DNA of 62,763 nucleotides from Psammoneis japonica. Taxonomy: Eukaryota. Positions 1 through 50,480 of this stretch are shown here, piece after piece. How positions within the stretch are numbered: position 1 is the first letter of the stretch; the number at the start of each line of letters is the position of its first letter. The position numbers were made by a program, and so were the translations under genes. The DNA lies in NCBI GenBank assembly GCA_008632985.1, contig QPGO01000008.1, positions 848,979 through 911,741 of the forward strand. The letters run 5' to 3'. The notes under the pieces were generated by a model. It had not been told where the DNA came from, did no database searches, and was given only the letters and a program-made list of their open reading frames with translations.

Positions 1-1057
1 ACAGTTTCAGCACATGTGTGTTTCATGTCCCACCACCAATCTTGCAATGCGAGTCCATGCTGTGTGCATGCCTTGGGGCAAATCAGACAGCACAATGATG
101 AAAGCCTTTGTGACAATGCTGATGGGATTTGCTCCCCACAGCAGTTCTCAAGCGGCGCTTCACTGCACCTCCTAAAGTTGCCTCCTGACCCACCGCCACA
201 CCTGGGGCCATTTTCTTTGTGGCAACTTGCCTGTGTTGCTTCAGTTTTCATCTTTTTTTTTTTCCATTGTGTTGGACCTTGAGCTCCGACAACCTCCCCT
301 CCCCTCCCGCCCCTTCTTCCCTCAAGTGTCAACATCATTTTCAACCCAATCATGTGCGATTGCTTCTGTGGCCCTGCACTGCCCTTCTCTGACACCTCCA
401 ACAGCCCCCCTCACATTTCTCCGTCCCACGACCTCGTCCCCCACGAGACTGTGCTCCCGCAAAGCCAGTCATGACACGAGCAACAGCCCCGTGTCACCAC
501 CTTTCTTCTGTGACCCCCCCTTCTGCACCTGCCACAGCCCTGCTCAATGGAGCCAATCGCGGCACCTCCAACAGCCCTTTTTTTTGCAACTTTCCCCCAA
601 GTCACAACCTCCACTGATGCCCCCCATTGCCCAAGAACCTTGGCCACCTCATCCCAAACCAGCACCCCTCCAATCATGCCCCCGAGCAGCTTCCATTGCT
701 CCACAATCACAAAAAGTTCAACTCAATGCAAGACACCAACAATGCTCTTCCTTCTCTTTCTTTCCAGTGCTCCATCATGTCTTTCCTCCAAGACAAGTCC
801 CGCTGGCTGGCCTCCTCTTCAGGACACTGCTGACAGCTCTCAAGATTCTCAGCCCCTCCTCACAACTCCTCCTGACAAGTCGAGAAGGACCTCTTTGCAG
901 CTCTGAAAAAATGCAATGTTCAGTTTTGTGCCTGCAATCCATTGGCGGGACCGACAACAATGCAAAGGACATTGGACCCAACACTCGTTTCGCACCAATG
1001 ATCGAGTCGAGTGAATCATCAGCATTGAAAGCGTGGTTGCGCGTGCTCCTGGCCACG
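1..1057. other. TpA/CpG-depleted degenerate repeat domain 1
   Basis: By eye only one TA dinucleotide (173-174) occurs in 1..1057 and TG/CA are abundant. ORFs here are Tyr-free and Cys/His-rich. Positions 1-70 are a mutated copy of 1100-1169. Confidence 0.85.
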
Positions 1058-1099
1058 TATTTTAGTCTTGAGCGCGATCAACATATTGCACATTTCTAC

Positions 1100-1169
1100 A
1101 CAGTTTCAGTACATACGTGTTTCATGTCCCGCCACCGATCTTACAACACGAATCCGTGCTGTGCGCATG
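1100..1169 (+). repeat. Less-mutated copy of the direct repeat at 1-70
   Basis: Ungapped alignment to 1-70 with 11 differences, all transitions. Confidence 0.9.
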
Positions 1170-1321
1170 CATGCCTTGCTGGGGCGACCAACCAAATAAT
1201 GCTTGTTCCCTTGAAGCACGAGTGCGTTGCAGCTCTCAACCGTCAGATTTTGTCAGAATTGCCTTTTCATCACATTATTTCAGGCCACAACTCTGTACGA
1301 CGAAGGAGTCTCTAGGAAGCA

Positions 1322-3763: not shown

Positions 3764-3884
3764 ATGCTTCGGAAACAAGCAGCTGCTACTGAACTAGAAT
3801 TTTTTTCAAGTCAAACTAACTTCAAAATCATACTGCTACAAGCTACGTTACGCCCCCTATGAAGAACAGATATATATGCTTTTG

Positions 3885-5189: not shown

Positions 5190-5320
5190 AATGTTTTTTT
5201 CTAAAAAGTATTAGACCTCTAATGTTTTTTATTGGGACCTCAGACCTCGAGGTAAAATGGTTTTTCAAAAAGCGTTGGAACTCCAATGGTTTTTGTCCAG
5301 ACCTCAGACCTCGAGGTCTG
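5190..5320 (+). repeat. Two copies of a small dispersed repeat (AGACCTCTAATG...AGACCTCAGACCTCG), also found inverted at 42668-42854
   Basis: Direct comparison with the reverse complement of 42668-42854. Confidence 0.8.
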
Positions 5321-7900
5321 ACGGAAAAGCTTACCCCGTGGCATTTGAAATGTGTGAGACCCGTCGCACTCTCTCTAGAGAGCTGGTGGCAAAGCGGGTG
5401 TAATTTTGGGGCACCCCCTGCCTCAAAAAAAAATTGCCACCAACAAATGGGCCTCCTGAGAGGCACGCATGTTTTGCTTGTAATTTTTCACACTGGTGCA
5501 AAAACAGACTCATCATCATCATCTGTGATGGCAACAATGTTGGCAGCCAACAATCAACCACGAACTTCAATCAACAAAAGATGTCAAAGCTTGTTGCTGG
5601 GAAGCTGCTGTGTGGCGCACTCAGCATGAAAGAAACAATGGCAAAAAATGGCGAGGTTGCCATCAACAGAAAACAAAACAAAGGCAAGTTCGTGTGCCAC
5701 CACAGACGAACAAGAAAAACATGCAACAAGGTCACTGAAGCCTTGCCCATGGATGCAATGGCAACACATGACATCAATCACATCATTTTGAATTGAGCAA
5801 ACTTGTCAGAACAATGGCTTGACACGCGCAAGGTTGCAGCACCACCAAACGCCATGGCATTTTGATGCAGTGTTGCAGCACCGCCAAATGCCATGGCATT
5901 TTGATGCAGTCACTTGACACTTGGCTGAGCACTCTCAACTCTCAACTTCACACGCAAATGAGTTGATTGAAGTCAGAGATGTGTGGAGTTGTCCCTGGTT
6001 GGATGTCTGCAACAAGTTTTTACATCCCCAAATTGCACTCTGAATCACACCCCAATTTCCGCAAGTGCAATGGTCCAAGTTGTTCACGGTGTCAGTTTTT
6101 GAATGCAAGGGTCGCTCACATTTTTCAGACCCGATCGCACACCAAAATGAGAACATCGTGCACCACAATTGAGGCACAACAGTGGCAGAAATCTTTGGCA
6201 TTTCTCCAAAACACAGCGGGATCTACAAACTTTTGATGTGCATCTGACCTTCAATGCACAAAGAGCATGAAACAAAATGAAAGTTTGCAGACAGACCACC
6301 TCTGTCACACAGACTTGTGGATGTTTTTCACTGAGCTGAAGTGCCATGATGAAATTCAGGAAAAATCATGCAAGTCATGAGCTGTTTGGCCAAATTTGAG
6401 CCAAAAATGCAGCAAACAATCCCCCCAGCACAGTTGTGTGAATGAGCAGGGTTCTCAAATTGCAAATGTGGAGTTCACAAACTTGCAAACATTTGTTGCC
6501 AAAGTGTGGATTTGTCATTTATGACGGACGTTTGTTGAGCCAGAATTTGTTCAGAAATTGTCTTGTTTGCAAACAGATTGTTTGCATGCTCACAGACACA
6601 AAATGTGAGCCATCATTTAAAACAGCTTGTGAAATTGCTTGGAAAGCAAAGAAACTCAGTTTTGCCAACGAAATGGAGAAGAAATGATGTCGAAGCATTT
6701 TGAGGGTGCCAACAAGTGACACAGCAGGATTTCATGTCAGCTCTTTGTGTTCAATGAAGAGCTGGAACACTGGTTCTTTGGGGTGCCCAAGGTGAGTTGA
6801 CTGTTGCAATTCCAAACTATGACAAAACATTGAAGTGTGCTTTTTTTCAATTTTCTCACTTGTGCTGCATTCTCTCTCTTGCACTGCAAAGAAGAAGCAA
6901 GAGCACTCAATTGATCTTTGCTTCTGTTGCAGCGGCAAGGTCTGACACTGACATCTGAACATGCAAGAGTGCAAGTGTGATGAATCAAGTGCCACGTTGT
7001 TGATCCACTGGTTTGTTGCTTGCTCCATTTGCCAGCTGTTGCACTGGTCAATTCTGCCTGCTGCACCAAGGAGAAAAGGTGAGAAGGCTTGTCATTTTTT
7101 GTTTCATCGCAGCACAAAGCTCTTGTGTCATTGTTGGGACAAGCAAGCAAGAATGTGAATGTTTGGTTTGCACATTTTGCTGTTGACTGAATCTTTCCTT
7201 TTCTTTGCTGCATGTTCTCGCTTTTGATTTGTTCACTCTTTGCACTCCAAAGAAAAATGGAAAGTTGGTTGGTTGTGGACATGACAAAAGGTTTGTCCTC
7301 AGTGATTGCCGCACCAATCCCACAATGCAACAAGTTGAGAGCATGGAGGAGCAAGGGGTGTGGTGTCATTTCCCAAAACCTCCACAGTGCTGTTGGAACT
7401 CCACCCCACCATTTCCACATGTTCTTTGTTGGATGAAATGCCGCTGTTGATGGCTGAGCACAGTTCCAAGAACACTTCTGCCAGGGAAGAAAAACTGCCA
7501 ACAGCAGGGATGGGTTCCTGGCCTGAACGCTTCACCACAGACAGTGGCAGATCTTGTGGAGCAGCAGGGAAAAGAGCAGAGACTTTGTTTTGTGCAACAA
7601 TTGATGCAAGAACAGAGGGCAATTTTTGTCCTCATCCTTTTCTTCTGGACATTGTGGTTGCTGCATGGCAACAACAATGTGGACAGAGCTCTTCTTCTCA
7701 TTGTGCATTTGTCCCTTCAATGGCTGCAAAAGAAGTGGGGCTGCCTGTCATTGTTGACAACTGGCTTTGATTCAAATGATTTCAGAGCCGCGGTTGCCTT
7801 GGCATGAACAGCAGCTTCTGCTGTGTTGTCATTTGTCATGTGATCCACAGAAATCAATGACCAAACTGCAACACGGTTCTTTCTTTTTGTTGTGGTTTTG
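5255..7900. other. TpA/CpG-depleted degenerate domain 2 (probable decayed TE, family not recognised)
   Basis: TA and CG are rare. Many overlapping, nearly Tyr-free ORFs. Contains a 39-bp tandem duplication at 5833-5910. Confidence 0.8.
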
Positions 7901-8256
7901 CACAGAAACGAAAGAATAAGTCGGATGCATGACTTGGTCCTGATTTGCTTTTAAGCGTGTCTGGGGCAGATCTGGAGTTGTCGGTTATCGGTCCTCTGTA
8001 GTTGGGGGTCAGGGTTCTACACTACTGTACTGTACCGTACCCAACTAAGGGCTCGAGGCTAAACGTGGCACTTCACCGTACTGGTGCCCACTTCTGTGTT
8101 TTAAGGGCACGAAGAAAGGACAGTGACGTACAGAAGCGCAAATAAAAATTGCTAAGGGAGTAGAGTTTCTATCATAGGGCGATGCTCGTGATGGTATCAG
8201 CGTTCAAATCAACAACAAAAACACAGAGATTACGAGGATGCAGTGTATGCTCAACG

Positions 8257-9939: not shown

Positions 9940-10743
9940 CGTCGCGTCGCTGCTCGCTGCATACCGGTAAGTTACGACCGCCACCAACCGCAGACATCTG
10001 AAATCTGAAACTGATCGATGATCGATGATCGATGCATACGGTACATGCGATGCGAAATGTTCAGTCTGTCTGGCTTGCGCGCGAAATCACCGTCGGACGC
10101 AAATAACACACGACAATGATGTGGTGACAATCGAAAAACAATTTGATGTTTCAAATGGCGGCAAGCCAAACCAGAGTGACTGTGATCATCTTGTTCATTG
10201 TCTTTGAGCCACAAGGGCTTGTTGGTGTGGCAAAAAGGTTGCTCCAGCAGCAGGGCAGGGTGCAAGTCATTGTCTTGCAGCACTCTTGCAACAAGATTGG
10301 CTCCAGTCAAATGCGGGCCTGACAGGGATTGGCCAAGTCTGTTTCTCCTTTCATCTGCCATGTTGGTTTGATGCATCAACTCACCTTGGGGGTCACTGCA
10401 AAATGACAAAAGCTGTCTTTCAGAGAAGTGCTCCAGTGTTTCCAGCGGGGGAGGCACTCTCTCTCTTCGCCGTCAGCACATCAGAGTCAGCGGGCACACT
10501 CTTGTTTTGTTTGTGTGCAAGCAGATTCACATTGGCCACTCACACAAAGCAACCAAGTGGGGGCAAGTGTGATGAGGGGGGCACTCTTTTGTCTGACAGC
10601 TGCTGATGGCACTCAAGGACAGCCTTTGTGCAAGAGGTTGTGCAGCCAGTGCTTTGTCATGCTGCGCTTTTTCATTTTCCACTCTTGCTCAATTTTCTCC
10701 ATTCTCACTGACAGCACCAAGGCTGAGTTTTTATGCTGTTCTG

Positions 10744-10768
10744 CTCTCTCTCTCTCTCTCTCTCTCTC
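10744..10768. repeat. (CT)n microsatellite
   Basis: Seen directly. Confidence 0.95.
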
Positions 10769-11060
10769 AAATGAACAACAAAATTGGTGAAGCTGATTTT
10801 CCATCAAATGTGACAAACAAAGAACAAAGAAGAGCAGCTGAGGCAGGGCTGCCAGCTCGGATGTTTGTCCAACTGTTTCGACGAATGGCAGGCACAACAA
10901 CGTTGGCCAAAGTCATGCGTGAGACTTTCATGGTGGCTCCATCAGTGGCCGGCTGTTGTTGTTTGCGTGGTTGAGGTTGTCGTGTTAAAAAGATCGAGTG
11001 GTGGGGGAGGACAGGCGAGTTGACTTGATCGAATGGTTTTTCTAAATCAATTCACTGCAC

Positions 11061-11113
<53 letters not shown>
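11061..11113. repeat. (TCTG)n(CT)n compound microsatellite
   Basis: Seen directly. It abuts the 3' end of the minus-strand RT relic. Confidence 0.95.
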
Positions 11114-12800
11114 AGTGGCCACCCTGTTTGTAATCCAGCAAGACAAAACTGGGGAGCCATTGGAGGTGTGAAGGATGCAGCATGAAAGGAGGTTGCCAAG
11201 GTTGCGTGACCGATTGCAGCAAACGATCATGCGGTCTAAGCCAATGCGCTGTCGGTTGTGATTTCGAATGTTGGCAAGTGCCTGGGAGCAGGGTCGAGAG
11301 GTCATCGTTCCTTTCCATGTCTTTTGTGGTTTGCTTGATGGTGGGTTGTTTGGATGGTGTGGGACATGTGGGAAGATGGGAGGATTGGTTGGGGGCTCGT
11401 CCGCAGTTGTTTCATTGCCAAAGAAATGGTTGCATGCCTTTTGGAAGATGGGTTGGAGCTTGCCAGGCTTGCAGCCTCGAGCAAGCAGTCAATGGCAAAG
11501 AAGTTTCATCTTTGTTTTTTGCATTGGTGGGGTCTGAGCAAAGCTTCTTGAAGTGGAAGAGCATGCCCACAATTGGGTGGGTGAGTGCTCCAGGCGGGTG
11601 AGCTGAATGTGGAGGGATGCACAGACATAAATTCATTTCTTTTTTGTAAAGAGTGGTGTGCAGGTGGGAGCCTTGGAGTGCAATGGTGAGGTCCACAAAG
11701 TTGGCTTGGTGGGCTCTTGGACTCGTGACCCAGTTGATGTTGCAGTCATTCATTCTGGAGGCAAATGCATTCCAGCAAGCGGCGTCGGAGGTTGACTCAG
11801 TGATTTGCCAAATGCCAAAGATGTCATTGACAAATTGTCTGCAGAAAACAAGGTTTGTGCCAAACTCCTCCAGGAGAGTGGCTTCATGTAAAGCACAAAC
11901 GAGCGTGGCACATGGCAGGGCCGGTGGTGTGCCCATTGCGGTGCCATTGCGTTGGAGCCATGCAGTGTCGCTGAAAGCAAAGACATTGTGTTTCATTGCA
12001 ATGCGGAGGGCTTCAACAAGGGCTTCTGCTGGCACATCTTGGAATTCATTCTCATGTTGTTGCAGGTGGGCCACAATTGCTTGAAGGGCTTTGTTCGTTG
12101 GGATGTTTGAGCAGTGGGACTCGGCATCAGAGGTGAAAAGAAGGCAGTTTGGTGGTGCCGCCATTTGGACTAATTCATTCTTGAGGTCCAACAAGCTTTT
12201 TGAGCAAGATGGTTGCTTGCGTGTGACTTTTTGCAGCTTGTTGTCTGCCCAGATGCCTGAGCCATAGAGCAGGAGGCTGCCACTTGTGGAGACGATGGGT
12301 CAGGATTTCAGCGGTGGGGGCTTGTGCACCTTTGGAGTGAGGCAGAAGACAGGGAATGGGGTTTCGTCAGTCTGAACATGATGTTTGAGATGCTTGCATT
12401 CCATCGGGGTTAGATCATCTTTGCATTTTTTGATCCAGTCAGCAAGAAGTTTTCTGATGTGGTGTTCATGCACGGCTTTGAAGGCGCTCAGGTGTTGGTG
12501 CGTGGTCACGTTGTTGAGGTGGTCATGAAACGCCATCTTGATGTGCTCAGTTTTTTCTGTGATGGCAGGGCCCAGGTTCTTGTCACATTGGGTGACAACA
12601 AAGTCATCTTGTTGGCACAGGCAGACAAGTGTGCAGTGTTGGTGAGGGAGTGGGTTGGTTCTGCCTCTGTGTTTGGCAAAGAGCTTGGCAAGTCTCTTCT
12701 TGAAAGAGGCACAAGAATGTTCTGGGTCTGCTCAATTGGCAACCACTTGGTGGCTCTCAGTTTTTTCGCTGCTGTGCTGCCTGTTGTGTGAGTGGGTTTT
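11113..12800 (-). mobile_element. Decayed Penelope-like element (PLE) reverse transcriptase
   Basis: Ordered PLE-RT motifs: CDKNLGP, LTPKVHKPPPLKS*PIVS, SDAESHCSNIP, QRNGTAMGTPPA, FCRQFVNDIFGIW, NFVDLTI, LYKKEMNLCLCIPPHSAHPPG, RMIVCCNRSRNLGNLLS. Interrupted by stops and frameshifts. Confidence 0.85.
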
Positions 12801-15473
12801 GTCAATGTTCCAGGTTGGCTCCCTTTGTGAGAGTGGTGAGCCAGGTTGCATTTTGTTTCTTTTGCAAGTGGGTGGTGAGCAGCAAGGTTCAGGGGGGCAG
12901 CAACTCTTGCCTCAAAAAGAGGCACCTTGGTGGTGCTCTCATGCCCAAGGACAGCATGCGTGCACAACATGTGCACCTGTGTTTTTCAGACAGCTGTTGA
13001 TGGCTCAGCTCGTGGAAATGTGAATTGTGCAAGCCTTGATGCTGCAGAAATTGGTGCAACAAGCTGATTTCACATTCTTCTTGGGCAGACCAAGTTGCTG
13101 CCAGCATTTTCTGCAGATGACCACCAAGTCAGGTGATCAGCGGTGGCATTCAGCCCCCAGACTTTTTGTTGCTCACACCTGCAGCTTGGAATGGGAACAC
13201 CACAGCCAGCATGTGCTTGCACTCCAACAACTCCAAAAATTGCAAACAGCCAAATCAACAAGACATGGAGCTGCACAGCAATCACAGGTCAAGTGCATGA
13301 AGGGGGCAGGACTCATGCTTGCTGCAAATGGAGGTGGGGGTTGCAGTTGTCTTGCACAGCAGGTTGTGAAATTGGATGTGAAGCCATGGACCCACTGCCA
13401 AGAAAGCATGAGCAAAGCAAAGTGCACAGCTCCAAAGTCTCTGGTCATGCAATGACATGAAAAACACACGGGCACCCTGCACATTGTGGGAGAAGCTGGC
13501 TGTGGCCAAGGAGGGTGCATCACTCCTTCTTTTGCTCAGATTGTTGTGCATGATCATCTTCCACACAAGAATGGGGGAAAAATCAATTGTTCCAGCAACA
13601 TTGCACACTGTCCAGAGAAAAAAAACAGATCTAAATTTTTGGTGCTGTTGCTCTGCAGCCAGCCAGGCTGGTGGTGCTGGCTGACCCGCACTCCCAGTGC
13701 ACTGCTTCAGCATGGCAGGAGCTTGCATGGGACCAGCCAAAGCCAGCACTGCCAGAAGGTGACACCCCACCAAAACAACTAAAAAGGAACAACTTGTGTG
13801 AGGAATTTGTTGCGTGCTTGTTGGCAACAGCCACAAAGGGCACACCACAACTGCAAAAAATAATTGCACAACTCAGATGGGTTTTTAAAAGAGTCCACAA
13901 AATGCTTTGGGACATGCTGCCAAAACTGGCACAAACTGACACTTCAAGGCCACTCAGTTTTGCACCAAGGAGAACCACAACAACGTGAGAAGTTCACCAC
14001 TCAAAGCAGCAAGCAGAAGAAAGATTGGACTTGGATGCATTGAGCTGGGAGCCTTGAAGGCAAGATGAGCAGGTCATTGGGGAAAAACATTTGTTGCACA
14101 CAGAAACAATGTTGGACCTTGTGCAGAAAAGCTGGCGAACACAGCAAATGGATGACAATCAAATGGCACAGAAGGACAACTCATGTTCATGCTTGCAAGG
14201 GCCACAACAGAGGCAGCACTTTCACTCTGAAGAGCAAAGGACTTGATCAAACAATGAAGAGAATGGTGGGTGGCATTGAAGACCAGCTGGTGTGGACAGA
14301 AGCAGCTTTGAGATGTGACAACTGGACCATCAATGGCATCACACAGAAACAACACCAGATCTTTTGCAAAAAAGCCAATGAGAGCAGCAAATTGATGACA
14401 ATCAAATGATGCTAAAGGATGACTCCCCTTCTCACTGGAAAGGGCCACAACGGAGGCAGCAGGAGTGCTTTTGCCCCAAAGAGTGAAGGACTTGACTGAA
14501 CAGCAGAGAAAAGAAGCAGCATTGAAAACTGGCTGGCAAGGGTGAAAGCAGTGCAGAGATGTGACATGCAGATCATCAGCAGTTTCTGCTGAACCACAAG
14601 GAATTTGCACTGGAACCTGTGCAGAAAATGTTTCTGACAAGAGAAAATTGTGAGAAACAACAGCCAGCACGCGAGTCGCGAGGCTTTGACACTCGTCATT
14701 TTCCACTGAAAAACATTGCGCATCATGCTGCAACAAGGTTGTGCCATTGGCAAATGTGGACAAAACAATGGGCTTGTTGGAGCCAACATGACACTGTCTG
14801 AGAAGGCAACATCAGCATGAGAAGTTGCACAGAAACCCACGCAGATGCCAAGGTGTGCAGCTGACGTCAAAAAGCCCCTTCTCTGCCCAGAGCAACAGCA
14901 GCAATGGGCCAACCCACACACCTTCAGCACACTGCACACTGCTGCAAAAAGTGTGACAACAATTGGCCTGCCTTGGTGCCACTCTGTGGTTCCCACCCAA
15001 AGTGACCAGCAATGGTCCTTGCACCCTGATTGTCTTCCACATGAGGCAGTTGAGAATCCCCTTGGCCCCATTTCTTCCCATCATCCAGGTTTCAGTGCAA
15101 TCATCTCACAACAAATCTTTTCCCCCATTGGCCTTTGCACAAAATATACAACCAAACAGGATTCTCTTTGGCACCGCAAAAAACCAAATCCGAAAGAAGA
15201 CAAACCACTCTTTGCGTCGTGAGTGCGTTCCTGGTAGCGCAGGCTAGCTAGCTCGCTGCTGCTAGAGTAGGGAGGCTACAGCAGGGCAAACGACTGGGAT
15301 CCTTTTAGTTTTCTCTGGCTTCTTCCTCATTGCAACATATGATCAGCAAAAGCATGAAGAAAGTAACTTTAATAAACCCTCGCTAAACTACCATTTTCTC
15401 CATCTGCGACACTGGCGATTCCATCATTTCGTTTCAGTCATCTGCTTCCACTTCGGAGTATCTTCCCCGCCCT

Positions 15474-24755: not shown

Positions 24756-24855
24756 GACTTGAGCCATATCGATTACTCATTACTGTTGACAAACATCACG
24801 ACCATTAGACTACTCAGAATTGAGCATTCGTTCTTCCTTCTGTATCGCAACGACG

Positions 24856-31810: not shown

Positions 31811-31989
31811 CATCTTGAACATGACATTCGTCGCCTCTCTAGAGACTACAGTAGTAGGAGACTTGGCCTCTTGTTTCCCCACACTTTATTTTACGCATTT
31901 CTCGTCGGGGCTTCCATGCTGTAACAAGTGAGGATAGTTGGGGGTTCTGCCGCGATGAGGGAATGAAACCAACGACCAAAGTGACCTTT

Positions 31990-34900
31990 TCAGTGTTGCA
32001 ATGGTGTTTGGGCACTTTGCTATGGATGGTTGGCTTTCTTGCAGCCTGACTGGTGAGGTTCGAGGCTGAAAGTGTTGTTGCACTTTCAGAGATTGGGAAT
32101 TGAAGAAACCTCTGATTAGGTGCCTTGTGTCCATTGCATTGAACTGCAAAAAAGGAGGTGCCACACCATGAAAATCCCTCACTCAGCTGTCCCTCTGGGG
32201 AGCATCATTGTGCAGAAGTCCAAGGCTCAAAACTGTGACAGGGTTTTTCCTCCTGTGCCTGTCTCTTGAAAGAAACCATGGAGTGTGCAAGTGCAGAAAT
32301 GGCCCGTCAAGATCAAGGATTCAACAGTGGCCCGCCTGAGGTCCTTTGTTCCATTGCATGCATTTTGCATGATTTGTAAGAGGATGAATGTAAAGCCAGT
32401 GCTCACTTGAAAATCTTTTGGACTCTGGAGATCATGGGGCATTGACAGAGCCGTTTTTGCTGCATCTTAAACATTTCCAAACCCCACATGCTGCTGGTCT
32501 CCAGCCACCTTTGGAGGGACAAGTTTGGTTGCATGCCTGTGCTGGCTTGACCACACATTTCAGTGTGTGTGCCAATGTGGAGCTGGCCTGCTGCCAAACC
32601 ACCAAACATGCATCACACGGTTGATGCCCCCAGCAGGTGTGGCGGTGCACTTGTTGGAAAAAACTTTTCAGTGTCATCGTGACCCTGCACATGAACATGT
32701 GTGTGTCATGTGATCACAAGTGTGGTGCAAGCAAGCAGTGCACTCATGAAGCCTTTGAAAAGTCTCTGTCTTGCCACCATCTGAATCATCATTTGGCAGC
32801 TGTGTGCACATGCTGTTTTGTTTATCTTGCAAGACACTGACAAAATTCTTTCACCTGCTGGCAAAGCACAATGCAGAGTTGAAGTCCTGGCAAAATGCAC
32901 AACTGTCTCTAAGTTTCTCTGGCTGCTCATTGATTGTGCCCAGTGTCAAATTCTTTTCATTTGGAGCAGTTTAGAAATTGCAAAAAATGGCCACATTTGG
33001 GCTTTTCCAACGATTTGAACAGGGCTTTCTCAGCCATCTCATTCCCACAAAACCACAGCTGAGCACTGCTTTGACTGCTCTCTAACCTGGAAGCTCCTTC
33101 TTTAACTGGCTGCTTCAGCATGAGCTTTTGATGTGCATTCTCACCCATGCACTGCCTGCCATTGATTTGGAGATTTGCGTGAGACATGAAGTGCAGTGAC
33201 TGCCCCTTGTCTCTTTGTTGGCATGTTTTTGTGCTGCACATGTCAGGACAACTGCAGTGGTTGAGGGTTGTGGTTGGCAACAGAAGATTGCCACTTTGCT
33301 CTTTTTGGGTGCATTTTTGCCTCTGTCCAATTCTTCAAAAACCAAAGCCCATGCTAAAAGAACACTGCATGATCCGATGCTGGGGGACAAGAAATGTGTG
33401 CAAAAGTGCAGAGCTCTTTGCTTGTTGTGTGCATGTGTGATGTGTCCCAACAAGGCAGTGGTGGCAAGTCAGCTGGGGCTCTAGAGAGAGCTTGGACAAC
33501 ACACTGTGATGGGGCATCCAATGTCCAACCTGTGACATGTGTGCATGAAAACTGACTGTGACCAAGAACTGACCAGCAACAGAAACCACGCTGGGCAGCA
33601 AGCACATCACTCTTGCGTTCAGCTGGACCCAATCACAGAGAACAACTTTGCAGCACATTCAACTGAGGTTGGGGCAGTGTTGAAATCAGAGTCAGAATTG
33701 TGGTGTGAAGGAGCACCCCAGCTGTGCATTTTCAAAACATGATTGATGCAGCCTCTGCAATTGACAGCAACTGAGTCATCATTCTGAAGAACAACGCCCA
33801 CAGGCCATTGAACTCAGTGCAAAGTCCAAGACACTTGAAGGGAGGCAAGTTTTGTTCTCAAGCTGCCAAGTGGCCTTGCCAATGCAACCACAAACAATGA
33901 CAGCAATGTCAGTGCCATCATCAGTTGGCACATCAAGCTCAAAAACAAGTCACGTTCCTCTGTCAGATGAGCAAGTTGACAAGACTTGAAATGTTGCTCA
34001 TGAGCAAAAGTGATTTTAAAAGTCAGGATCTCATCATCAAAAACCTGACATGGAGCAAATTCTGCATCAAAAACCAAGGGCACCTGTTGTTTGTTGATGA
34101 AGATGATGCTCACACCTGCAAGCTTGTTCCACACTGCTTTAAGGGTGAAAAACAATTGAAAGCAGGGTTGCCCCTTGCAGTGTCTGAAACATGCACTTGG
34201 TCTGTCAATGTGCAAGCAGACAGGCCAACAAGACCATGGGTCCAATCCTTGGGTGGGTGCTTGATGACACATGCGACCATCTTTTCTTGGCAAAAAGATT
34301 GATGGAAGAAATGAACACAAGAACCATCATTTTACATGGCTCTGTTGGAAAAGGTGCACCTTGCTCAATTTGTTGCACAGTGCACCAAAATTCTTGACCT
34401 TGCCAGCAGCAACAGCAATCAGGGCAGATTTTTGATCTCGTGAAGGTGCAGCATTCTTTGTCCTGAGACAGTGACACATTTGCAGGGCCAAAAATGAACA
34501 AGAAGATTGGCATCAATGATTGTTGCATGGGCAGCATTCTCAACAGCAAGGTGTGTGTTGGCTCTTCAACAGGACAACACATTGACCAGACACACCAGCG
34601 TCAGAGGGACAAATGTCACAGCAACTTGTTGAAAGGGTCATGGACTTTGGGGCTCCTTGCAGATCTTGTTGCCTTGGTCCACAAGCACACATTTGTTTCA
34701 TCTAAATTGGAAGGGTGTCAAACAGAGTCATCTTGAGGGGGCCAAACACCCATCTCCACAGTGCTGTTGGACAACATCTGGGGTGCTTGGATTCACTTGA
34801 GAAGTTGCAGTCTCTTCTGCAGGTGCTGGAAGAGAGCAAAACTCATCTTGGAAAGGAGCGCACTTGCATGCAAAGAGAGACAGATTGTCACCAGGGTTGT

Positions 34901-37900
34901 TCCCGCCACAGGCAAACCCTGGCTGCCTCCAGCTTTAATGAAACACCAAATCAGGTGCACACATCATGTCCCACAAGACAAGGCTTGCTGCACAGCTGTG
35001 AGACATGCCCATGTCAGAAGACCTTGAGGTGAGAAGGTGTCTTTGCAGATCAGGAGTGGGTCATGGAGAAAAAAGCCTTGGTGCTCCATTCCATGTGATG
35101 AGTTGACAACAAACCATGATCAGCAAGCATGAGACATTCAGTGTCATTTTCAAAATGCAGGTTTCCAGAGGAGCAGTGAGTCAAGGATGAGTTTCCAAGA
35201 ATCACCTTCCCCATTTGTTGCATCAAAATGCCTTGGAGTTGCCAACTGTCTTCCAAGCATTGGTCACAGCAGCTGTCTGAAACTGCTCTGGACTTGGCAA
35301 ATGATCAGCAGCTGATGCTTTCCAAAGTCATTGGGAGTGGGAATTGCCGGATCAGATGTTGCTTGAACCATGACCTTGCAAAGATTGGCCCAGTTCTTGA
35401 GATGAGCTGGATGTCCTTGTGAAGGGCTTGCAAAGAGAGGAGCTTTCTTGACAAGCACTTCAACGGTGCAAGAGGTTGTGTCTTCCATGAGCACAGCTCT
35501 TGGCATGATGAGATCTTCAGCAATCTTGTGACAGATGGCAGCAACAGAACGTGGGGGTGCAAAACCATCCAGAACATCACCTTCAAGATCAGAGGCACTG
35601 CATTAGAACAAAGGGTGCTCAGGTGGATGTGGGCATCAGCAGAGTGATTGTCTTGCTGAGGACCACATTGTGGGGGACGTCTTTGGAAGTGAGACTGTCG
35701 AAGAAAGTTACGTAGAATTTGCACTAAAACAGTCTGTCAATCAGTGCGATTGGGGCGTTTGGGAACGCTGGACAGATCCCACGTGTTTTCTTGTGCATGC
35801 AAAATTGCACTGGAAATGCCCCCAAACACACTGGCGATCAGACCGCCTTGTCAATCTCACTTCTAAAGACGCCCCCCAATTGGTTGATGCTGTCTTGACC
35901 AAATTGACCTTAATGTGTCACGTTTTTGGCCATGTTTGGTGCACGAGAAAAAATCAATTTCTGCACAGAACTCTGGTGTGTTGGTCACTGTGACCACAAA
36001 CCAAGTTGCAGGAACAAACATGCACCACCAGTGCTGTCAATTGATGTTCAAATGTGCTTGAAATGGTGAAGAGAGACAGCACAAAATGCTGCCCCCACAA
36101 CCTTGCAGATTGGTGGTGGCAATGGTGGGACAACCTCACAATGCCCAGGACACCACAATGGTGGTGCCATGTGCCAGATGTGAGAGAAAGTGAGAAGGAA
36201 AATCATTGGATCTCTCAATCTGCCTGTGCCAATGGGTCTGTCTGCATCACATGGGTGACACAAGTGCGCGGCTGCCAATTTGCAACACCAGAAGTTTCTT
36301 GCATGGGAAGAAAAAGTGCGCATTTCAAACAAAGAATTTTTGTCTACCCAGCTGTGCATGTGCCACCAAAGAAAGGAGCAGTTCTAAAGCTTTTTAGAGC
36401 TGAAGCTTGGTTGTCCAAGAACAAAGTGAGGTGGGCCAGTTCACAAGAAAGGACTTTTGCCTTCTGCAAGAGAAAGCTGAAAGAAGAAGAAGCTGAAAAA
36501 AAAAGACAGTGTGCCACAGAAACATTGAAACCACTGAGAGACAGCTTGGGAAGAGCCAGCCAGATGTTGACAGAGAGCATCAGCTCTGTCAGAGCACACA
36601 TTCTTTGGCACGCAAAACACCACAAATCTGTGGTGTGGACTTCTCCCACACAACACCGATGAGCAAAACTTTGCTTTTGATTGGTTGCAAGACACACAAT
36701 CCAAGAAATCCCAACTTTAAAAAAAGTGGCACCAGAGCTCCTTCACAGGATCAGAGCAATTGTGAACAAGAGTTTTGGAGAAACCAGTGGCTGCTTTGGA
36801 GCCATCCCCTTTGCCACTTTGGCTTGGTTCCTCTGTTCCTCTCAATGAGCTCTTTTGGGAACACATGAAGTGCTTGCACATTGTCTTTTGTGGCAAAAAC
36901 CCCTGGATTTGTTTCTGCAAGAATGTGTGGCCATCAGCTCATCAGGCAGTTGAGAAAAGAACAACCACAGGGGCTGGCAGCACTGCAGAAATGGTGTGGT
37001 GCCTTGGAATCATGGTGTTCACCAATGTGGCAAAACACCATGGCTGTGTTGACATTTGTGTGTCTTTGTCAAGTCCAACCCCTGCATCACCCAGACATTG
37101 TTGTTGACAGAAATGCATGCCATGTCATGGCACCTTGATTGTCATCAGCAACTTCTTGTTTTCACATCTGCTGCATGAAGAGCTGCTCTCAACAAAGCCG
37201 CAACTTTGCAGGTAATCTTCGCCCTCCTTTTGCACCACAGCAGCTCCCATTTGCATGATTCCTCTGCTCTTCAGCCATCAGGACCCAATTTGTCAACACT
37301 GGAATTCATCTGTGACGGGTCTTTTTTCTTCATTGCAAGTGGGATGACTGTTTTCCAGCAATGCTCCATGACAGGATTTGAACAAGATTTTAGTTTGTCA
37401 CACACAATTGTGTGTGCTCTCAGCTCCGCGCGCGTTGCGCGATGTAGTTTGCTTTTGAGCCACAGAGCTCACAAGAACAATGACAGCAGCACCGACATCA
37501 CGACACCAGTCTTTCGGCTCCTGTGACGGTCTCTGCACGGAGACTCATCTGCTGTTTAGACAGCAGTGAGGAGTTGTTGTTTTCTTCCACCCAGTCATCT
37601 TCATTTTCTGTCACTCCAGGAGACATGCAGACAAAAGAGAAGTGCCTGATGTGGTTGACTTTGAGCACAACCCAAGCATGCTTTCCCACCAAACACTTTG
37701 ATCTCAGAATTCAAAACCTTGGCCCAAAGGGGCCACATGGCAGCTGCACTGGGGCACAACATCACAGCAACTTTGTGCGAAGCTGTCAAGGATTGCCTTT
37801 TCAAGGACTGCCCCTGATCTGCATCAGATGATGTGTTGTTTGAAAAATTTGGCAGATGATGATGAACAAAGCAATGCTGGGTCATGCAAGGGATCAGGTG

Positions 37901-40250
37901 CTGTGAAAGAGAAGGGGTTTGCCAACATGGAGGAGGTTGGCAAAAAGCTTGCAATTTCCACCATCACTTTTGAGTGTCAGCAACATGTTGTTGAGACTGC
38001 TTTGTGATGCAGGGACTCAGCATCTGAAACAGACCAATTTGGAGACCAACATGCACAGGTTCATGGCAAGGAAGAGTCCAGTCATTTTGCTCTGAACATT
38101 TTTTCAGCAAGAAGATGACGTGCTTCTTTGGCTTTCCTCATCCTCCCTCTCTTCGCACACACAGAATTTGGATTTAATCTTTCATCAGAGTCAGCTGCAT
38201 TTCTTCAACAGTTGTCAAACTGCTGTCATCCAAGGCTTTCAAAGAAACTTTGCATCACCAGCAGATCACCAATTGCCACCCCATGCTGTCAAGCCTCCTG
38301 ACTGCAGCACAGCCTGGCTCATCAAAGAAACTGTACCAGCAATTAAAAGCACTGCCAGCACAATTTGTTGGAGGGGGTGGCAGTTGAGTTTGGACATGAG
38401 GAGACATTTTGCTGTGCACTCAGAGCAAAACAGAAAGACACCCAAACTGCCTGGGCACAGACAACAAACCAGCACTGAATGTCAAGAGCTTGAAAATGTG
38501 ATGGTGGTCAAATTGTGCATTTCTTCTTGTGCGCTGAATCTGCCAATTTGGAAATGCCTCGTCTGGGTGGAGCAAGGTGTTCTGCTTTGACATGGGTTTC
38601 AAGTGCATGGCTGCCAAGTCTGGACACCCAAAGTTCCTGGTGTGGAAAGAAAAAAATGTGTGCAGAAAGAACTCATGTCTGGCTTTTCTCTTGTTCATTG
38701 CCTGGGCAGCACAAGGTGTTGTGTTTTGACATGGGTTTCAAGAGTGTGGGGTTGCCATGAAGCCCCAACACAAAAAGTGTCTGGCGTGGAAAGAAAACAT
38801 TGCTTGGGTTAATTTTTCTCTGCCCAGCCATTCATTTCCTCTGGAGGAGCTGACTTGCCCAACAAAACAAAGGTGGGGCCAGCTCAGAAGAAACATTTCT
38901 GGCATGCAGCATGAGAGCTGAAAGAAATTGTCAAAAAGAAAAAAGATGCTCCATGGAAACATCGATGCCACACTGAGAAATGGCTTTGGAGCTGACCAGA
39001 CTTTGACAGGGTGCATCAGAGTGGAAGCTCTGTCAAAAAGCATTCTTTGGCATGCAAAATGGCAGACTTCCCTGCAGTTGTGTTGGCACTGATGCACAGA
39101 GTTTGCTTTTGCTTGGCTGCAAGGTGCAACCAGAGAATCCCTGATTTTCAATGGACCACCAAGCTCTTTTGGGTTTGGCACAAGCACAAACCCCATGGCC
39201 CCCAGTTTGACCAGTCACTTTGGAGCCATGCCCTCTGCCACTTTGGTTTGGCACCTCTGCCCTTCTTGACAAAAGCTCTTTGAAAGATGCACACAAAAGA
39301 AGCACGCGGTGTCTTGGGGAGGGGGTGCACAAGTGTGTGACAGCAGCAGCACAAACAACTGCTGGGTTGGCAAGTTTTTGAATGCCGTGAAAGAAAATGC
39401 AAGCACCAGTGCCAAGCAGACCATTGCACTGTCATTTCATGACAGAGAACCCTGGATTTAGCTCTGCAAGAATGCACGGCAATCAGCTCAGCAAGAAGCA
39501 GAGAGCAACAAATTGCAAGAAAAAGAGCATGCTGCAAAAACAGTGTGAGATGAATTAGAAGCATGTGGTGTGTGCCAGTGTGGTGACAATGCCTGTGCTG
39601 ACATGTCTTGTGTCTCTTTGTCAGCCCCCACAGCACAGAAGCAAGTTTCTCAAAGAGACTCTTGCTGCAGGAGCGCAAAAGTTCTTGGCATGACAGACAA
39701 GCACATGTCTGAGCCGTGTGGAAATTGTCAACAAAAGTACACATGATTGTGGCATCTTGATTGTTGAAAGCAACCACATGAAGAATTGCTTGTGCACAAA
39801 GCTGCGACTTTGCATGGGGCAGTGGTGCCAATCTCCTTTTGCATCGTGGTGTGATCCCCACCACTGGCACATCTCATCCACTCTTGAGGTGACACCAGCA
39901 TCCAATCCTTCATTGCTGAAATTTGGCTGCATTGGGTTGTCCTTGGCTTCATCAAAGCACACAGAAATTTCTTGCACTGGTGTGAGGACCTCAAAGACCA
40001 TTCTCCAGTGACACTTGTGGATGCAAAAAAGGGCTAGAAATGCCTGTTGGCACCACAGTTGACTTTTGAGTGCAACCTGAGCATCAGACGACCTCCACCA
40101 AAGTGGCCATGGCAACTGTGCTTTCCTTGGGATGGAGCTGCCAAAGACTGCCTTCCAAGGACTGCCCCTTTGCATTGAGGATGATGAACAAAGCAATGCC
40201 AGATTGTGTGGAGGATCAGGTGCTGTGGAAGCAGGGGCTTGCCATGACGG
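31990..40250. other. TpA/CpG-depleted degenerate domain 4 (about 8.3 kb)
   Basis: TA and CG are rare throughout except for a small island near 35670-35880. Dozens of spurious, nearly Tyr-free ORFs. Confidence 0.85.
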
Positions 40251-40342
40251 AGATAAACAGAAAGCTTGGCATTTCCATCATCGCCCCTGAGTCCCAGCAA
40301 CATTATTTGTCGAGACTGCTTGCGCAAGCACTCAGCATCTAA
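36050..40342 (+). pseudogene. Tandem pair of decayed paralogous coding sequences (about 2.3-2.4 kb period)
   Basis: QWLLWSHPLCHFGLVPL (about 36790) vs QSLWSHALCHFGLAPL (about 39215). Blocks 37780-38010 and 40135-40330 are also clearly homologous. Confidence 0.65.
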
Positions 40343-40609
40343 AATAGAGCACGCAGGCAGGCAAAATACTCATTATGCTCTAAAACCTTTCTTAGCACAA
40401 TGACGAGATTCTTTTGCTCTTTCCATTTGTCCTACCCCCTTTTCGCGCGCACAGGCTTCGGATTTCGTCTTTCTGTTAAAGTTTTGCTATCCAAGGCTTT
40501 CAAAGAAGCGTTACGACACCATACGTTGAGATTGGAGCGCCTAGTTTGAGGACGAGGGCGAAGACAATTAGTAGAAACACAGCTGCTTCACGTCGTGTTG
40601 CTCCGATCT

Positions 40610-42667: not shown

Positions 42668-42854
42668 CGCGAGGTCTGAGGTCTAGATAAAAACCATTAG
42701 AGGTCTAATACATTTTTTGAAAAACCATTAGACCTCGCAAGACCTCGAAGCTTTTGTTCTCATCGTGGTTCGCGAGGTCTGAGGTCTAGATAAAAACCAT
42801 TAGAGGTCTTATGCTTTTTTTGAAAAAACCATTAGACCTCGCAAGACCTCGAAG
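42668..42854. repeat. Two tandem units of about 83 bp (103-bp period), each with an internal inverted repeat
   Basis: CGCGAGGTCTGAGGTCTAGATAAAAACCATTAGAGGTC...CCATTAGACCTCGCAAGACCTCGAAG at 42668 and 42771. Confidence 0.92.
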
Positions 42855-45970: not shown

Positions 45971-46588
45971 ATGCCTCGATTCTTCGACGACTATTCGAAC
46001 ACTTACTTGACTCACGACAGTGCCGCGGGGCGTAAGCAGCAACGACGGGGGTGGAAATTTCGAGAGAACTTCAAGCTGCATTACGAAAAGCATCTGGAAT
46101 CGTGGAGACAAGGTCCGATGGGTTTGGCCGCGGCACAACAGGCCTACCTGAGGAACGTTGGAAGCAACGGTCCTGGAGTTACTCCATTGCCGGAGGGCTG
46201 GAAAGAAGAGGTGGACGATGCAACGAGGATAACCTTTTATATTTCCCCCCATGGGGAGCGCACTTGGGTTAGACCGAATTTCATCCCGCCTCCAACAACA
46301 TCAGTTCCGCCACCACGTTTTGCCGGTCCTCCACCAACCAGGCCACCTCCTAGATATCCACCAGGACCGCCGCCGCCCATTGGTGCAGGTCCGCCGCCCA
46401 ATTTCAGTGTACCACCGCCGAACTTTGGTGGGCCGCCACCTCCTCTCCCTCCTCCTGGTGGACAGGGTCCTCCTCCGCCGCTTGGACCAGGGCTGCCTCC
46501 GCCAAATCTGCCTCCACCCGGGCAAGGACTGCCTCCACCGGCCCTACCTCCTCCAGGACAAGGGCCTCCGCCACCTACGGGTGCATAA
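45971..46588 (+). CDS. SNRPC: U1 snRNP protein C-like, with WW domain and Pro-rich tail
   Basis: MPRFFDDYSNTYLTHDS aligns with the U1-C N-terminus (MPKFYCDYCDTYLTHDS). LPEGWKEE...FYISPHGERTWVRP is a WW domain. Confidence 0.8.
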   Translation: MPRFFDDYSNTYLTHDSAAGRKQQRRGWKFRENFKLHYEKHLESWRQGPMGLAAAQQAYLRNVGSNGPGVTPLPEGWKEEVDDATRITFYISPHGERTWVRPNFIPPPTTSVPPPRFAGPPPTRPPPRYPPGPPPPIGAGPPPNFSVPPPNFGGPPPPLPPPGGQGPPPPLGPGLPPPNLPPPGQGLPPPALPPPGQGPPPPTGA

Positions 46589-46722
46589 AACGCGCTTTGT
46601 TCCGTGTACAATAACACTGTTGAGTTCCCTAGATCAATGTAAACTAGATTCGCAAGCTCAACAAAGGCTGCTTTAATTGTAAAACATTTTAAAAGATGCT
46701 TTGTACTCGCTTTGTACGCGAT

Positions 46723-48458: not shown

Positions 48459-48830
48459 GTCGGTCTTGTCGGTCTCGTCTGACACGGCTCTATTGAAGAT
48501 GTTTCTGACGCCTCCTCTTTAGGTGACAACTACATTAAAAGGGAGCTCAAAGCTCACTCTGTCTTACTGTCGTCGTCGTCGTCGTCGTCGATTCTTCAGG
48601 TGTTTTGACGACGCGAAAGGGCAAAGTAGAAAATTGAAAATGAGATGGTGCGTGACGGATTGATGACAAAATAGTTGAAACGTCCTACAGTACTGTTGTA
48701 CCTGTACAGTACGTACACGTTAAATACTTTCAAAACGTGGTTGCATCACACACAAAGTGACGTCATTAGTTTTTCCCGCGCTTTTTGCTCTTCAAGTAAG
48801 TTCATCGGCAGGTCGTCAAACAGTGTGGGA

Positions 48831-48961
48831 TACCGTACATAACGACAACGCTGACGTGGAAGGTCATCCTCTAAGTAATTGCGCCTTATGTACGGTACAA
48901 ATTTTATACCGTACATACATAAGGCGGAGGATGTAACAAGGTTATACCGTACATAAAGGCG
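48831..48961. repeat. Cluster of four TACCGTACATA(AGGCG) motifs, one inverted
   Basis: Copies at 48831, 48907 and 48945 (+) and 48882-48897 (-). Confidence 0.85.
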
Positions 48962-49119
48962 AATTTTTACTTACTTAACGGGGTACTTTTTTGAGTCATC
49001 ACACATTGCCCTTTGTCATTTTAATCAAGTTAGTCAAACACAGCTTTTTAAACCGCCGCATCGCAGTGCGCACGGAGAAGACGGATCTTGTGGCACAAAT
49101 GTCGCCAGTCTAACGCAGA

Positions 49120-50480
49120 AAATGTGATGGCATCCCAAGCAGAAAGAATTGCTGTTGTCAGCTGTTGCTTGCTTCCTGTCTCTCTGTTGTTGTCTCTTCT
49201 TTTGCAAGTGTTCTGAGTTGACAATGCAGGGGGCCGGCTCTCTGAGCTCTGGCAGCTCCTGGGAGCTGGCCAGCACTGCTGCTGCTCTTGGCTGGCGCCT
49301 CACAAGCAGTGGCTGTGCACAATGATGTGCACTCTTGAGCCACCACCTGGTGCCAAGACTGTGCCAAGTTGGCTTGCTTCTCTCTGTGTGGTTTCTTGAC
49401 TTTGCCCCCATGCCATCCTCATCAAAGCAAGCCTTTGTTTTCTCACCCTGCTTTTGCCGCTGCTTGTCTTGTGCTGGCACACACTGGAGATCATTTCCAG
49501 GCACCTCAGATGCTGCGTGCTTGTGAGCTTCTGCTCTTTTCATCTTTTCTTTTTGTTCTTGTTGCTCTGGCTGCTTGCTGCTCCAACACACAGCAGAGCT
49601 GCTTTTTGCTGCTGACACTGCTGCTCTTGCCCGTGACCTTGTTGGTGCCACAGCAAAGCACTGTGCTGGAAGCTCTGCACCAAACACCAAAGCTGCAAAG
49701 ACAATTGCCCAGCTCTGCAAAGAGGTCATGGAGCACATGCTTGTGCTCTCATTTGACAGAAGCAGCGCACAGCAGCAGAGAGATATCTTCAGCAAGCTCC
49801 GGTGCTTTCGCACATGCTCGGAGATTCGCTGACAAGCACTGGAGCAGTTTTTTGCAAGGCACAGCTCTCAATGACAACTGGGTTACACCCAAAAGTGGTG
49901 TTGAAAACACTTTTCAGGGAGCTGCTGCTTGGTCATGGACAACACACAGAGATTCTTGGCTGGCCTGCCGGGGCAGCAATGTGAGCTTTTGCTGGGTTGT
50001 GCTGCAAAGCATCTCACAACTGCTTGCTTTCAGCTCCCAAAACAGAGTCTCACAATTTCCCCTTTTGGCATTCTCTTCACCCCTTCCACCCAGTTCTTCA
50101 AGGCACAGCACATGCCGCTGTCCTCTGTGCAGGCTCTTGTCCCCTTTGGCGGCTTCTCTCTTCTTGCTTCCTCCTCGTGTTGCTCTGCCTCCTCTTGTGG
50201 CCTCCTCCACTGGTGCTGGTGTGGCTGGACACTTTGTTTCTGCACAAGCTCCTTGTCTGCATGTTGCATTTTGCTTCACACGTTGTCCCTTGTCCTTGAG
50301 TGCAGCTGCCTTTGATGATGGTTGCTTGTGCAGTTGTTGTCAGTTCTCCCCACTTTAACACACGGGTCACTTTTGTGACATGACGACTCTCGCTTCGCTC
50401 GAGTCGAGTTAATCAAAACCTGCTGCCCACACCAGGTGAAAAAATGCCAGTTCATCTTCCCATCTGTCTTGCTTCCCATG
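49120..50480. other. TpA/CpG-depleted degenerate domain 5
   Basis: Only a few TA in about 1.3 kb. The 329-aa and 259-aa ORFs here contain no Tyr. Confidence 0.85.

Follow-up and report, generated by a model that had tools for sequence, protein, structure and literature searches.

A near-saturated footprint of putative TpA-directed hypermutation, with CpG decay, in non-genic domains of the diatom Psammoneis japonica

The closest described counterpart of the phenomenon considered here comes from the chlorarachniophyte alga Bigelowiella natans, in whose mutation-accumulation lines Mettrop et al. (bioRxiv 10.64898/2026.01.13.699255) reported TpA-specific hypermutation of integrated viral DNA. There, 231 of 302 nuclear mutations fell in two integrated viral regions, one of ~186 kb from a nucleocytoplasmic large DNA virus (NCLDV) and one of ~25 kb from a virophage; nearly all changes in these regions were A>G or T>C, every such change lay on TpA, the rate was ~6e-7 per site per generation, and the hypermutation was seen in only some of the lines. 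The NCLDV region is single-copy and silent, with a Rho of 0.45, and the genome holds 124 clusters of TpA-poor, CpA+TpG-rich windows, its low-TpA coding sequences being enriched in reverse transcriptase (RT) and DDE domains. The authors proposed, but did not show, an ADAT2-like DNA adenine deaminase as the agent, and the accessible text of the preprint mentions neither diatoms nor CpG (bioRxiv 10.64898/2026.01.13.699255). Here we describe a corresponding footprint in a 62,763-nt stretch of the genome of the pennate diatom Psammoneis japonica (assembly GCA_008632985.1, contig QPGO01000008.1, forward-strand positions 848,979 to 911,741; hereafter the window), in which five sharply bounded domains, one of them with the relic of a provisionally Penelope-like retroelement, are almost devoid of TpA and poor in CpG.

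As far as the accessible text of the preprint allows the comparison, the two cases agree in several respects: A>G and T>C changes occur only at TpA, giving TpG or CpA according to the strand; delimited DNA is hit, in B. natans foreign, silent and single-copy and in the diatom presumably silent, at single-copy depth in domain 4 and of identified foreign origin in domain 3, while the rest of the genome, or here of the 62.8-kb window, stays ordinary; TpA depletion is coupled to a gain of CpA and TpG, there in clusters enriched for RT and DDE domains and here in a domain with an RT relic among others; and polymorphism is concentrated in the affected region. They differ in that B. natans is a rhizarian and the host here a stramenopile, that the target identified here is the relic of a Penelope-like retroelement and neither a giant virus nor a virophage, that the depletion is near-complete (observed/expected ratio, o/e, 0.06, against the Rho of 0.45 of the NCLDV region), and a strong CpG>TpG/CpA arm is present; moreover, the rate is inferred from sequence here and was measured there.

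Other known processes share parts of this signature. Repeat-induced point mutation (RIP) of ascomycetes, with the DNMT4-type enzyme RID as candidate, likewise drives saturating, context-specific transitions into selfish DNA, destroys its reading frames and leaves sharp borders. However, RIP produces C>T mostly at CpA and thereby creates TpA, whereas here TpA is destroyed by A:T>G:C, and C>T/G>A falls at CpG in 13 of 15 cases. Furthermore, RIP acts only on duplicated sequence and along its length, whereas at 90% likeness the diatom domains prove single-copy, a repeat copy is cut by one of the borders, and CpG is kept in the highest-copy repeats; a duplication of the domains in the ancient past, before mutation, is possible. 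Diatoms do have DNMT4 enzymes related to RID, for which the available text of PMC9998398 gives no known function. Decay through deamination of 5-methylcytosine (5mC), following DNMT5-type CG methylation of diatom transposons, resembles the CpG>TpG/CpA arm in its strand symmetry, non-genic restriction and patchiness, but the removal of TpA is beyond its reach. Finally, animal ADAR/APOBEC hyper-editing also deploys deaminase-type transitions against selfish elements, with a 5′ U/T preference in the case of ADAR; unlike the changes described here, which fall on either strand of integrated DNA, form no runs and are tied strictly to TpA, it acts on RNA or single-stranded cDNA in strand-biased runs and graded contexts.

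Composition and extent of the five domains

We examined the window with a sliding-window dinucleotide table and pooled counts, and called domains with a two-state hidden Markov model (HMM). An earlier note on this DNA, made from its letters alone, had described five domains poor in TA and CG and rich in TG and CA, and the counts bear this out. The domains span 18,366 nt in total and the rest of the window 44,397 nt. TA occurs 70 times in the domains (o/e 0.06) and 1,734 times outside them (0.58), and CG 234 times (0.22) against 2,505 (0.98); at the outside frequencies, ~717 TA and ~1,036 CG would be expected in the domains. Conversely, the domains hold 1,998 CA (o/e 1.78) and 2,049 TG (1.75), the corresponding outside ratios being 1.19 and 1.16, while the G+C content is unchanged (48.3% in the domains, 47.9% outside). 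Arithmetic on the pooled counts puts the loss of TA and CG at 7.9% of dinucleotide steps and the gain of TG and CA at 7.4%, a near-equality that is predicted by conversion of TA and CG into TG/CA. A milder drop in AT and rise in GC are accounted for because TAC becomes TGC and GTA becomes GCA.

The HMM recovered five segments (Table 1), with borders that are sharp at 20-nt resolution in the border map and with ordinary composition elsewhere in the 62.8-kb window. Hence, the domains of the earlier note stand, as does its count of a single TA in 1-1057, while two of its borders need adjusting: domain 5 ends ~125 nt before 50480, and the stretch 5255-5401, ahead of the HMM part of domain 2, is a transition zone (TA o/e 0.22, CG 0.78). 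In domain 1 as a whole, TA is reduced to an o/e of 0.02 and CG to 0.44.

Table 1. Features of the window discussed in the text (coordinates are those of the window; TA and CG counts of the domains refer to the HMM segments)
Feature	Coordinates	Strand	Remarks
Mutated domain 1	1..985		1 TA, 21 CG in 985 nt; runs off the left end of the window
Mutated domain 2	5255..7908		5255-5401 transitional; HMM part 5402-7908 with 6 TA, 32 CG
Mutated domain 3	10112..15144		16 TA, 74 CG in 5,033 nt; border map
Mutated domain 4, the largest	31974..40247		39 TA, 69 CG in 8,274 nt
Mutated domain 5	49115..50355		2 TA, 15 CG in 1,241 nt; border map
RT relic, provisionally Penelope-like (telomerase-RT-like) retroelement	10955..12875	-	in domain 3; tblastn with 109 homologues
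Unmutated partner of 1-71	1100..1170	+	keeps TA and CG where 1-71 has TG/CA
Unmutated 62-64-nt repeat unit just outside domain 2	5190..5253	+	keeps 5 TA
Further unmutated copies of the 5190-5253 unit	42670-42729 and 42773-42833	other strand	keep the 5 TA
Copy A of the diverged direct duplication in domain 4	36171..38260	+	aligns with 38633-40521
Copy B of the duplication	38633..40521	+	holds the right border of domain 4 (~40247)
CpG island 1 in domain 4, short high-copy repeat, probably a later insertion	35678..35944		12 CG, 5 TA in 35670-35950
CpG island 2 in domain 4, very high-copy short repeat	37391..37557		11 CG, 3 TA in 37385-37560

A reverse-transcriptase relic and the direction of change

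The direction of the changes can be read from a degraded coding sequence in domain 3. Its open reading frame (ORF) 11415-12299 on the minus strand has 109 longer homologues (best E 3e-77, 53% identity, ~650 aa), and tblastn of these against the window gives coverage solely at the relic. The identity of the family was settled by a fold search: a family model built on 31 members (predicted local distance difference test score, pLDDT, 86.2) retrieved with Foldseek the TERT structure as top match (3du5_A, E 2.1e-10), followed by LINE-1 ORF2p and group II intron RTs, and the predicted fold is thus that of a reverse transcriptase. In addition, the most distant member of the family passes the Pfam RVT_1 cut-off. 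At the sequence level, a profile search of PDB sequences with the family gave no significant match, Pfam gave none on two full-length members, and NCBIfam returned only sub-threshold RT hits on the most distant member. Penelope-like elements have an RT close to telomerase RT, and we provisionally assign the relic to them; the name rests on the TERT-like RT fold of the model, the GIY-YIG endonuclease being no part of its basis. The retroelement relic that the earlier note had seen in the domains is therefore supported, for domain 3, by tblastn, codon analysis and fold search.

We compared the relic with its homologues at 185 conserved columns, defined as those with the same residue in at least 70% of the homologues, and found it identical to them at 144. 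All ten conserved Tyr have changed, eight to Cys (TGY) and two to His (CAY), as have five of the eight conserved Arg (to TGA twice, CAA, CAC and TGC); most of the other changes are Leu>Pro (CCA), Ile>Thr (ACA), Val>Ala (GCA), Ser>Leu (TTG), Asp>Asn, Glu>Lys and Gly>Ser. No conserved Asn (8 columns) or Lys (4 columns) has been lost. Taking the shortest path for each codon change, we obtain 45 base changes: 9 TA>TG, 7 TA>CA, 8 CG>CA, 5 CG>TG, two other transitions (both C>T) and 14 transversions. Thus, each of the 16 A:T>G:C changes lies at TpA, with no A>G or T>C elsewhere, and 13 of the 15 G:C>A:T changes lie at CpG. The latter 13, like the CG o/e of 0.22 across the domains, have the form that 5mC decay would give. 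Among these and other changes, two CGA>TGA stops break the reading frame of the relic.

Whether the relatives of the element are already free of TA, a check suggested in the earlier note, can be answered in the negative: Tyr falls below 2.5% in none of the 109 longer homologues, none of 35 shorter ones and none of 138 further representatives (0 of 282 in all), whereas the relic ORF has 0.7% Tyr and 4.1% Cys. As a statement on how widespread the process is, the absence of Tyr-poor copies from the 35 shorter homologues and 138 further representatives is weak, broken copies being rarely called as proteins. The codon comparison shows, as far as reconstructed ancestral codons can, that the domains were once ordinary sequence, in which transitions on both strands turned TpA and CpG alike into TpG/CpA, in keeping with what the earlier note had proposed.

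Action in place, choice of targets and surroundings

Repeats at the domain borders give a second view of the same changes. The first 71 nt of the window match 1100-1170 (85%), and where the two differ the domain copy mostly shows TA>CA/TG or CG>CA/TG; this repeat is also all that was detected of the duplicated coding sequence which the earlier note had claimed. The first unit of domain 2 (5256-5317, 62 nt) is the tandem twin of the unmutated unit 5190-5253, and all five of its TA have been converted, once to CG, twice to TG and twice to CA. The 60-64-nt unit (5190-5253, 42670-42729 and 42773-42833, with the mutated copy at 5256-5317) consists of two similar halves; it could be a small mobile element or mark where members of a transposon family end. 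In domain 4, the two copies of the diverged direct duplication differ most often, among adjacent double mismatches, by CA against TG (42 cases, the next class having 13), as is expected if the copies converted the same ancestral TA or CG independently. Left of ~40250, copy B is without TA or CG; beyond that point it retains TA and CG at sites that read TG/CA in copy A.

Contigs of a DNA run (X1), probably from the same sample as the window and thus no independent organism, carry over 31200-41000 the same TA/CG-poor sequence, at a depth of ~53-77 in 26 of 30 bins, in domain 4 and its flanks alike. Their sequence departs from that of the window at 59 single letters and at several one-base indels, and they are hence not simply the window's own consensus. 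The composition is therefore no assembly artefact, which the earlier note had asked to be checked. Of the 59 differences, 40 were listed, and 24 of these interconvert TA or CG with TG or CA; in domain 4 the listed differences involve 5 of the 39 remaining TA and 7 of the 69 CG, where of all positions together ~0.5% differ, and they include two CA-against-TG doubles. The single-base indels of X1 relative to the window (at 31899, 33849, 35213, 36198, 36316, 36508, 39307 and 40124) could be residual assembly errors of the window or allelic differences, and at 40177, near the domain 4 border, X1 carries 25 extra nt that are absent from the window. Together, the repeat, duplication and contig alignments show, so far as such patterns can, a process that acts on integrated DNA in place, site by site and on both strands.

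The manner of action can be further narrowed. Over the domains as a whole, CA and TG are about equally numerous (1,998 and 2,049), which speaks for strand symmetry. The assignment of TG or CA along the duplication forms 19 runs against 20.3 +/- 2.9 expected, so that no strand-coordinated runs were found there, and the balance of TG and CA in 100-600-nt bins is no more dispersed in the domains than outside. The hits would hence be independent for each site and strand, unlike the tracts of a processive single-strand deaminase. The surviving TA (n=56) are enriched in CTAA/TTAG and TTAA and absent from ATAC/GTAT; either these survivor contexts are hit less often or new TA arise in them. The two arms are also separable. 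Within the domains lie patches with a CG o/e of 0.7-1.4 and a TpA o/e of 0-0.16 (e.g., 10850-11310, 12465-12540, 14660-14725 and 415-495), which means that TpA loss is independent of local CpG loss. TpA loss is the more uniform and complete arm and CpG loss the patchier one, and the single "dual" system envisaged in the earlier note is not sustained, TpA loss being complete in patches that keep CpG.

The notion that repeats are the target fares no better. At 90% likeness, domain 4 is at single-copy depth in X1 except for two ~200-nt stretches at roughly 600 to 90,000, i.e., the CpG islands of Table 1. Summed X1 depth reaches 5,354 and 587 in the two bins of island 1, with ~57 around it, and 9,679 and 90,274 in those of island 2; in both, CG is near-normal and TA already low (o/e 0.26-0.29). 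These depths mean hundreds to more than 1,000 genome copies, and the islands are candidates for miniature transposons that landed in domain 4 once it had been mutated. Mutation is thus least in the sequences that are repeated most; these may be later insertions or too short for targeting. What the affected stretches share is that they are long, non-genic and presumably silent. Since the neighbouring genes and short intergenic spacers are spared, targeting would follow a property of the domain, such as foreign or silent chromatin, rather than repetition. A tandem array at 58088-59144 has five 189-190-nt units, three of them at 98-100% identity and the outer two at 69% and 78%; it lies inside the overlapping ORFs 58275-59075 (-) and 58471-59127 (+) and adjoins a 1,119-aa ORF without Pfam match (59148-62507 -). 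Its TA and CG are ordinary or high, so the array has been spared by the mutation process.

The ORFs flanking the domains represent genes of an ordinary eukaryotic kind (ferric reductase, TFIID subunit, cyclophilin/U-box, DEAD helicase, RNase PH, sugar transporter, Clp protease and others), and the regions of normal composition hold host genes only. The best relatives of the sugar transporter, at no more than 73% identity, come from pennate diatoms (Nitzschia, Seminavis, Fragilaria, Epithemia and Cylindrotheca). Wherever the window shows no recognised gene over a long stretch, that stretch is one of the five domains, and none of them stops more than a few hundred bases away from a gene: domain 1 stops ~340 nt before the ferric-reductase ORF (1322-3763 +), and ~125 nt separate the start of domain 3 from the cyclophilin/U-box ORF (8257-9987 -), which it precedes on the upstream side. 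Neither tRNA genes nor Rfam families were found in the window, domain borders included. Domains 1, 2 and 4 share only short repeats with other places, no content was identified in domain 5, and no coding signal was detected in domain 4; the domain content was scanned by ORFs, from which degraded protein domains in domains 1, 2, 4 and 5 may have escaped. No deaminase gene turned up among the window ORFs that were scanned.

Some further observations concern the coding potential of the window. TAA and TAG are gone from 10112-15144 and 1-985, and TGA is the sole remaining stop in the domains; as a result, frames of 200-380 codons are open in several frames on both strands and could be mis-annotated as genes. 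Within domain 3, 14097-14566 is a diverged tandem duplication of ~225-245 nt (74% identity over 122 nt, 69% over 230) that overlaps 14251-14700, the only stretch outside the relic with some period-3 signal, and may be another coding remnant of the element. Elsewhere, the adjacent same-strand ORFs 24820-25530 and 25546-26721 match positions 1-170 and 177-220 of a trypsin-domain profile and have the look of a single serine-protease gene that a short intron, a frameshift or an assembly error has divided.

Candidate explanations and their implications

We consider it likely that the five domains are old, non-genic inserts that were rewritten after integration by a TpA-directed A:T>G:C process together with CpG decay. 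Under this explanation, at least one of the inserts would be a Penelope-like retroelement, and two context-specific transition processes would have acted site by site on the two strands. One of them, faster and more uniform, would turn TpA into TpG or CpA and be near saturation; the other, which is patchier, would turn CpG into TpG/CpA, most simply by deamination of 5mC in methylated silent DNA. As for chemistry, we infer that an ADAT2/TadA-like or other deaminase might convert the adenine of TpA into hypoxanthine, a base read as G, and that the loss of Tyr codons and reading frames might serve defence. It is also possible that a RID-like enzyme or a dual A/C deaminase, instead of 5mC decay, made the CpG arm. 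The earlier note's proposal of a second, TpA-directed process, for example DNA adenine deamination, matches the TpA mutation measured in B. natans, although as a category this arm is not new, having already been reported there (bioRxiv 10.64898/2026.01.13.699255).

Several points weigh against this explanation or limit it. Content has been identified in one of the five domains, and the foreign origin of the other four would rest on short repeats. A Pfam scan of 104 stop-to-stop ORFs from the domains yielded no credible match, the lone hit, Vfa1 (E 0.0029), being below its cut-off; likewise, a period-3 signal was not found outside the RT relic, with some only at 14251-14700 and none in domain 4. 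The ancestral codons of the relic were picked by a parsimony that favours TA/CG paths, although the Tyr, CTA, ATA, GTA and TTA cases are unambiguous. Where the window and X1 differ, the two may represent alleles of a diploid, and the rate here is inferred from sequence; moreover, in all five TA differences it is the window and never X1 that has the TA, whereas symmetric allelic decay predicts otherwise. The ~200-nt inserts keep CpG and some TpA, and the process would therefore be slow, episodic or length-dependent. Finally, no CpG arm is described in the accessible account of B. natans, so the two arms seen here may be unrelated.

Were the changes instead made before integration, an RNA or cDNA hyper-edited by an ADAR-like or APOBEC-like enzyme would have been inserted afterwards, and the borders would be the ends of the insert. 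The sharpness of the borders and the retroelement relic in one domain agree with this, as does the preference of ADAR for U before the edited A (according to the Discussion of bioRxiv 10.64898/2026.01.13.699255). Yet the coding strand of the relic was hit both ways (9 TA>TG against 7 TA>CA, 5 CG>TG against 8 CG>CA) and there are no strand runs; a border lies inside a repeat copy, and at another border a tandem twin was spared; the duplication copies diverged later by CA/TG doubles, and the window and X1 differ at the same steps; and the context is absolutely TpA rather than graded, with Asn and Lys fully kept (8/8 and 4/4). We hold such an origin to be very improbable. Even less can be said for an intrinsic or selected composition, that is, a foreign genome or element that itself avoided TA and CG. 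The 282 relatives use Tyr normally, the Cys and His of the relic stand exactly at their conserved Tyr, unmutated partners adjoin domain sequences, and the frame was destroyed by CGA>TGA stops, and for domain 3 and the sequenced borders the idea is already contradicted. Some viruses avoid CpG and UpA, and most of the domain DNA is without identified relatives, but we find this origin scarcely credible.

A third rival needs no new enzyme: T:G mismatches left by 5mC deamination would recruit error-prone patch repair, for example by polymerase eta, which writes TA>TG as a by-product. This would explain both the presence of the two arms in the same domains and the confinement of TpA loss to methylated silent DNA. 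Polymerase eta is known for A>G errors at WA motifs in somatic hypermutation. Such a preference predicts AA>AG, whereas Asn (AAY) and Lys are kept at 8/8 and 4/4 columns and no A>G is found outside TpA; furthermore, TpA is gone where the CpG o/e is 0.7-1.4, and in domain 1 with its TA of 0.02 and CG of 0.44. In B. natans, too, the TpA arm is reported, in the accessible text, without a rise in G:C>A:T (bioRxiv 10.64898/2026.01.13.699255). We rate a repair by-product as quite improbable, and regard pre-integration editing, polymerase-eta-type repair and intrinsic composition as largely excluded. Harder to part from deamination is a mutagenic modification, in which the thymine of TpA is oxidised to 5-hydroxymethyl- or 5-formyluracil by a TET/JBP-type enzyme, or its adenine carries N6-methylation, with mispairing that leads to T>C or A>G changes. 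Like CpG, TpA is a palindrome, as befits a symmetric DNA mark, and the hits are independent for each strand and site. 5-formyluracil mispairs with G, and base J and 5-hydroxymethyluracil favour TpA. In dinoflagellates, 5-hydroxymethyluracil replaces 12-68% of thymidine, as the available text of PMC6313786 states; against this, the literature on this base with diatoms yielded dinoflagellate papers only. The conversion of TA to CG in one place of the 5256-5317 unit fits two independent strand hits under deamination and modification alike. Indeed, A>G on one strand is T>C on the other, so sequence cannot separate the two, and behind the TpA arm there could be deamination of adenine or else a modification that makes T or A mispair. 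On balance we see the modification as unlikely.

A more sweeping variant would have both arms made by a single ADAT2-like deaminase that acts on A and C in double-stranded DNA, as one editing defence ancestral to the stramenopile–alveolate–rhizarian (SAR) group. We regard it as doubtful, though conceivable. If true, integrated foreign DNA would be marked and have both its palindromic pyrimidine-purine steps rewritten, and diatom genomes would hold much fully edited, unrecognisable transposon and virus DNA that repeat annotation has missed.

Returning to the likelier explanation, in which old inserts were rewritten by a TpA-directed process with CpG decay, TpA-specific A:T>G:C hypermutation of DNA has, as far as our searches show, been described once before, in the chlorarachniophyte preprint. 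The literature searched, without subscription journals and preprint supplementary tables, yielded no report of TpA-directed mutation in diatoms. The TpA category is thus already known, if barely, and what is new here is the diatom lineage, the retroelement target, the near saturation and the CpG arm. A saturated footprint in a pennate diatom implies that the process is no peculiarity of one alga and extends its targets from integrated viruses to retroelements. It also puts the end state on view: DNA with almost no TA, no Tyr codons and TGA stops only, which our Pfam scan fails to see. That the TpA and CpG arms are partly uncoupled sets limits to any model of the mechanism, and a second lineage is now available to comparative genomics, by which the enzyme could be sought among the genes common to both groups. 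The transposon content of diatoms may accordingly be under-estimated, and dinucleotide scans can recover the edited fraction.

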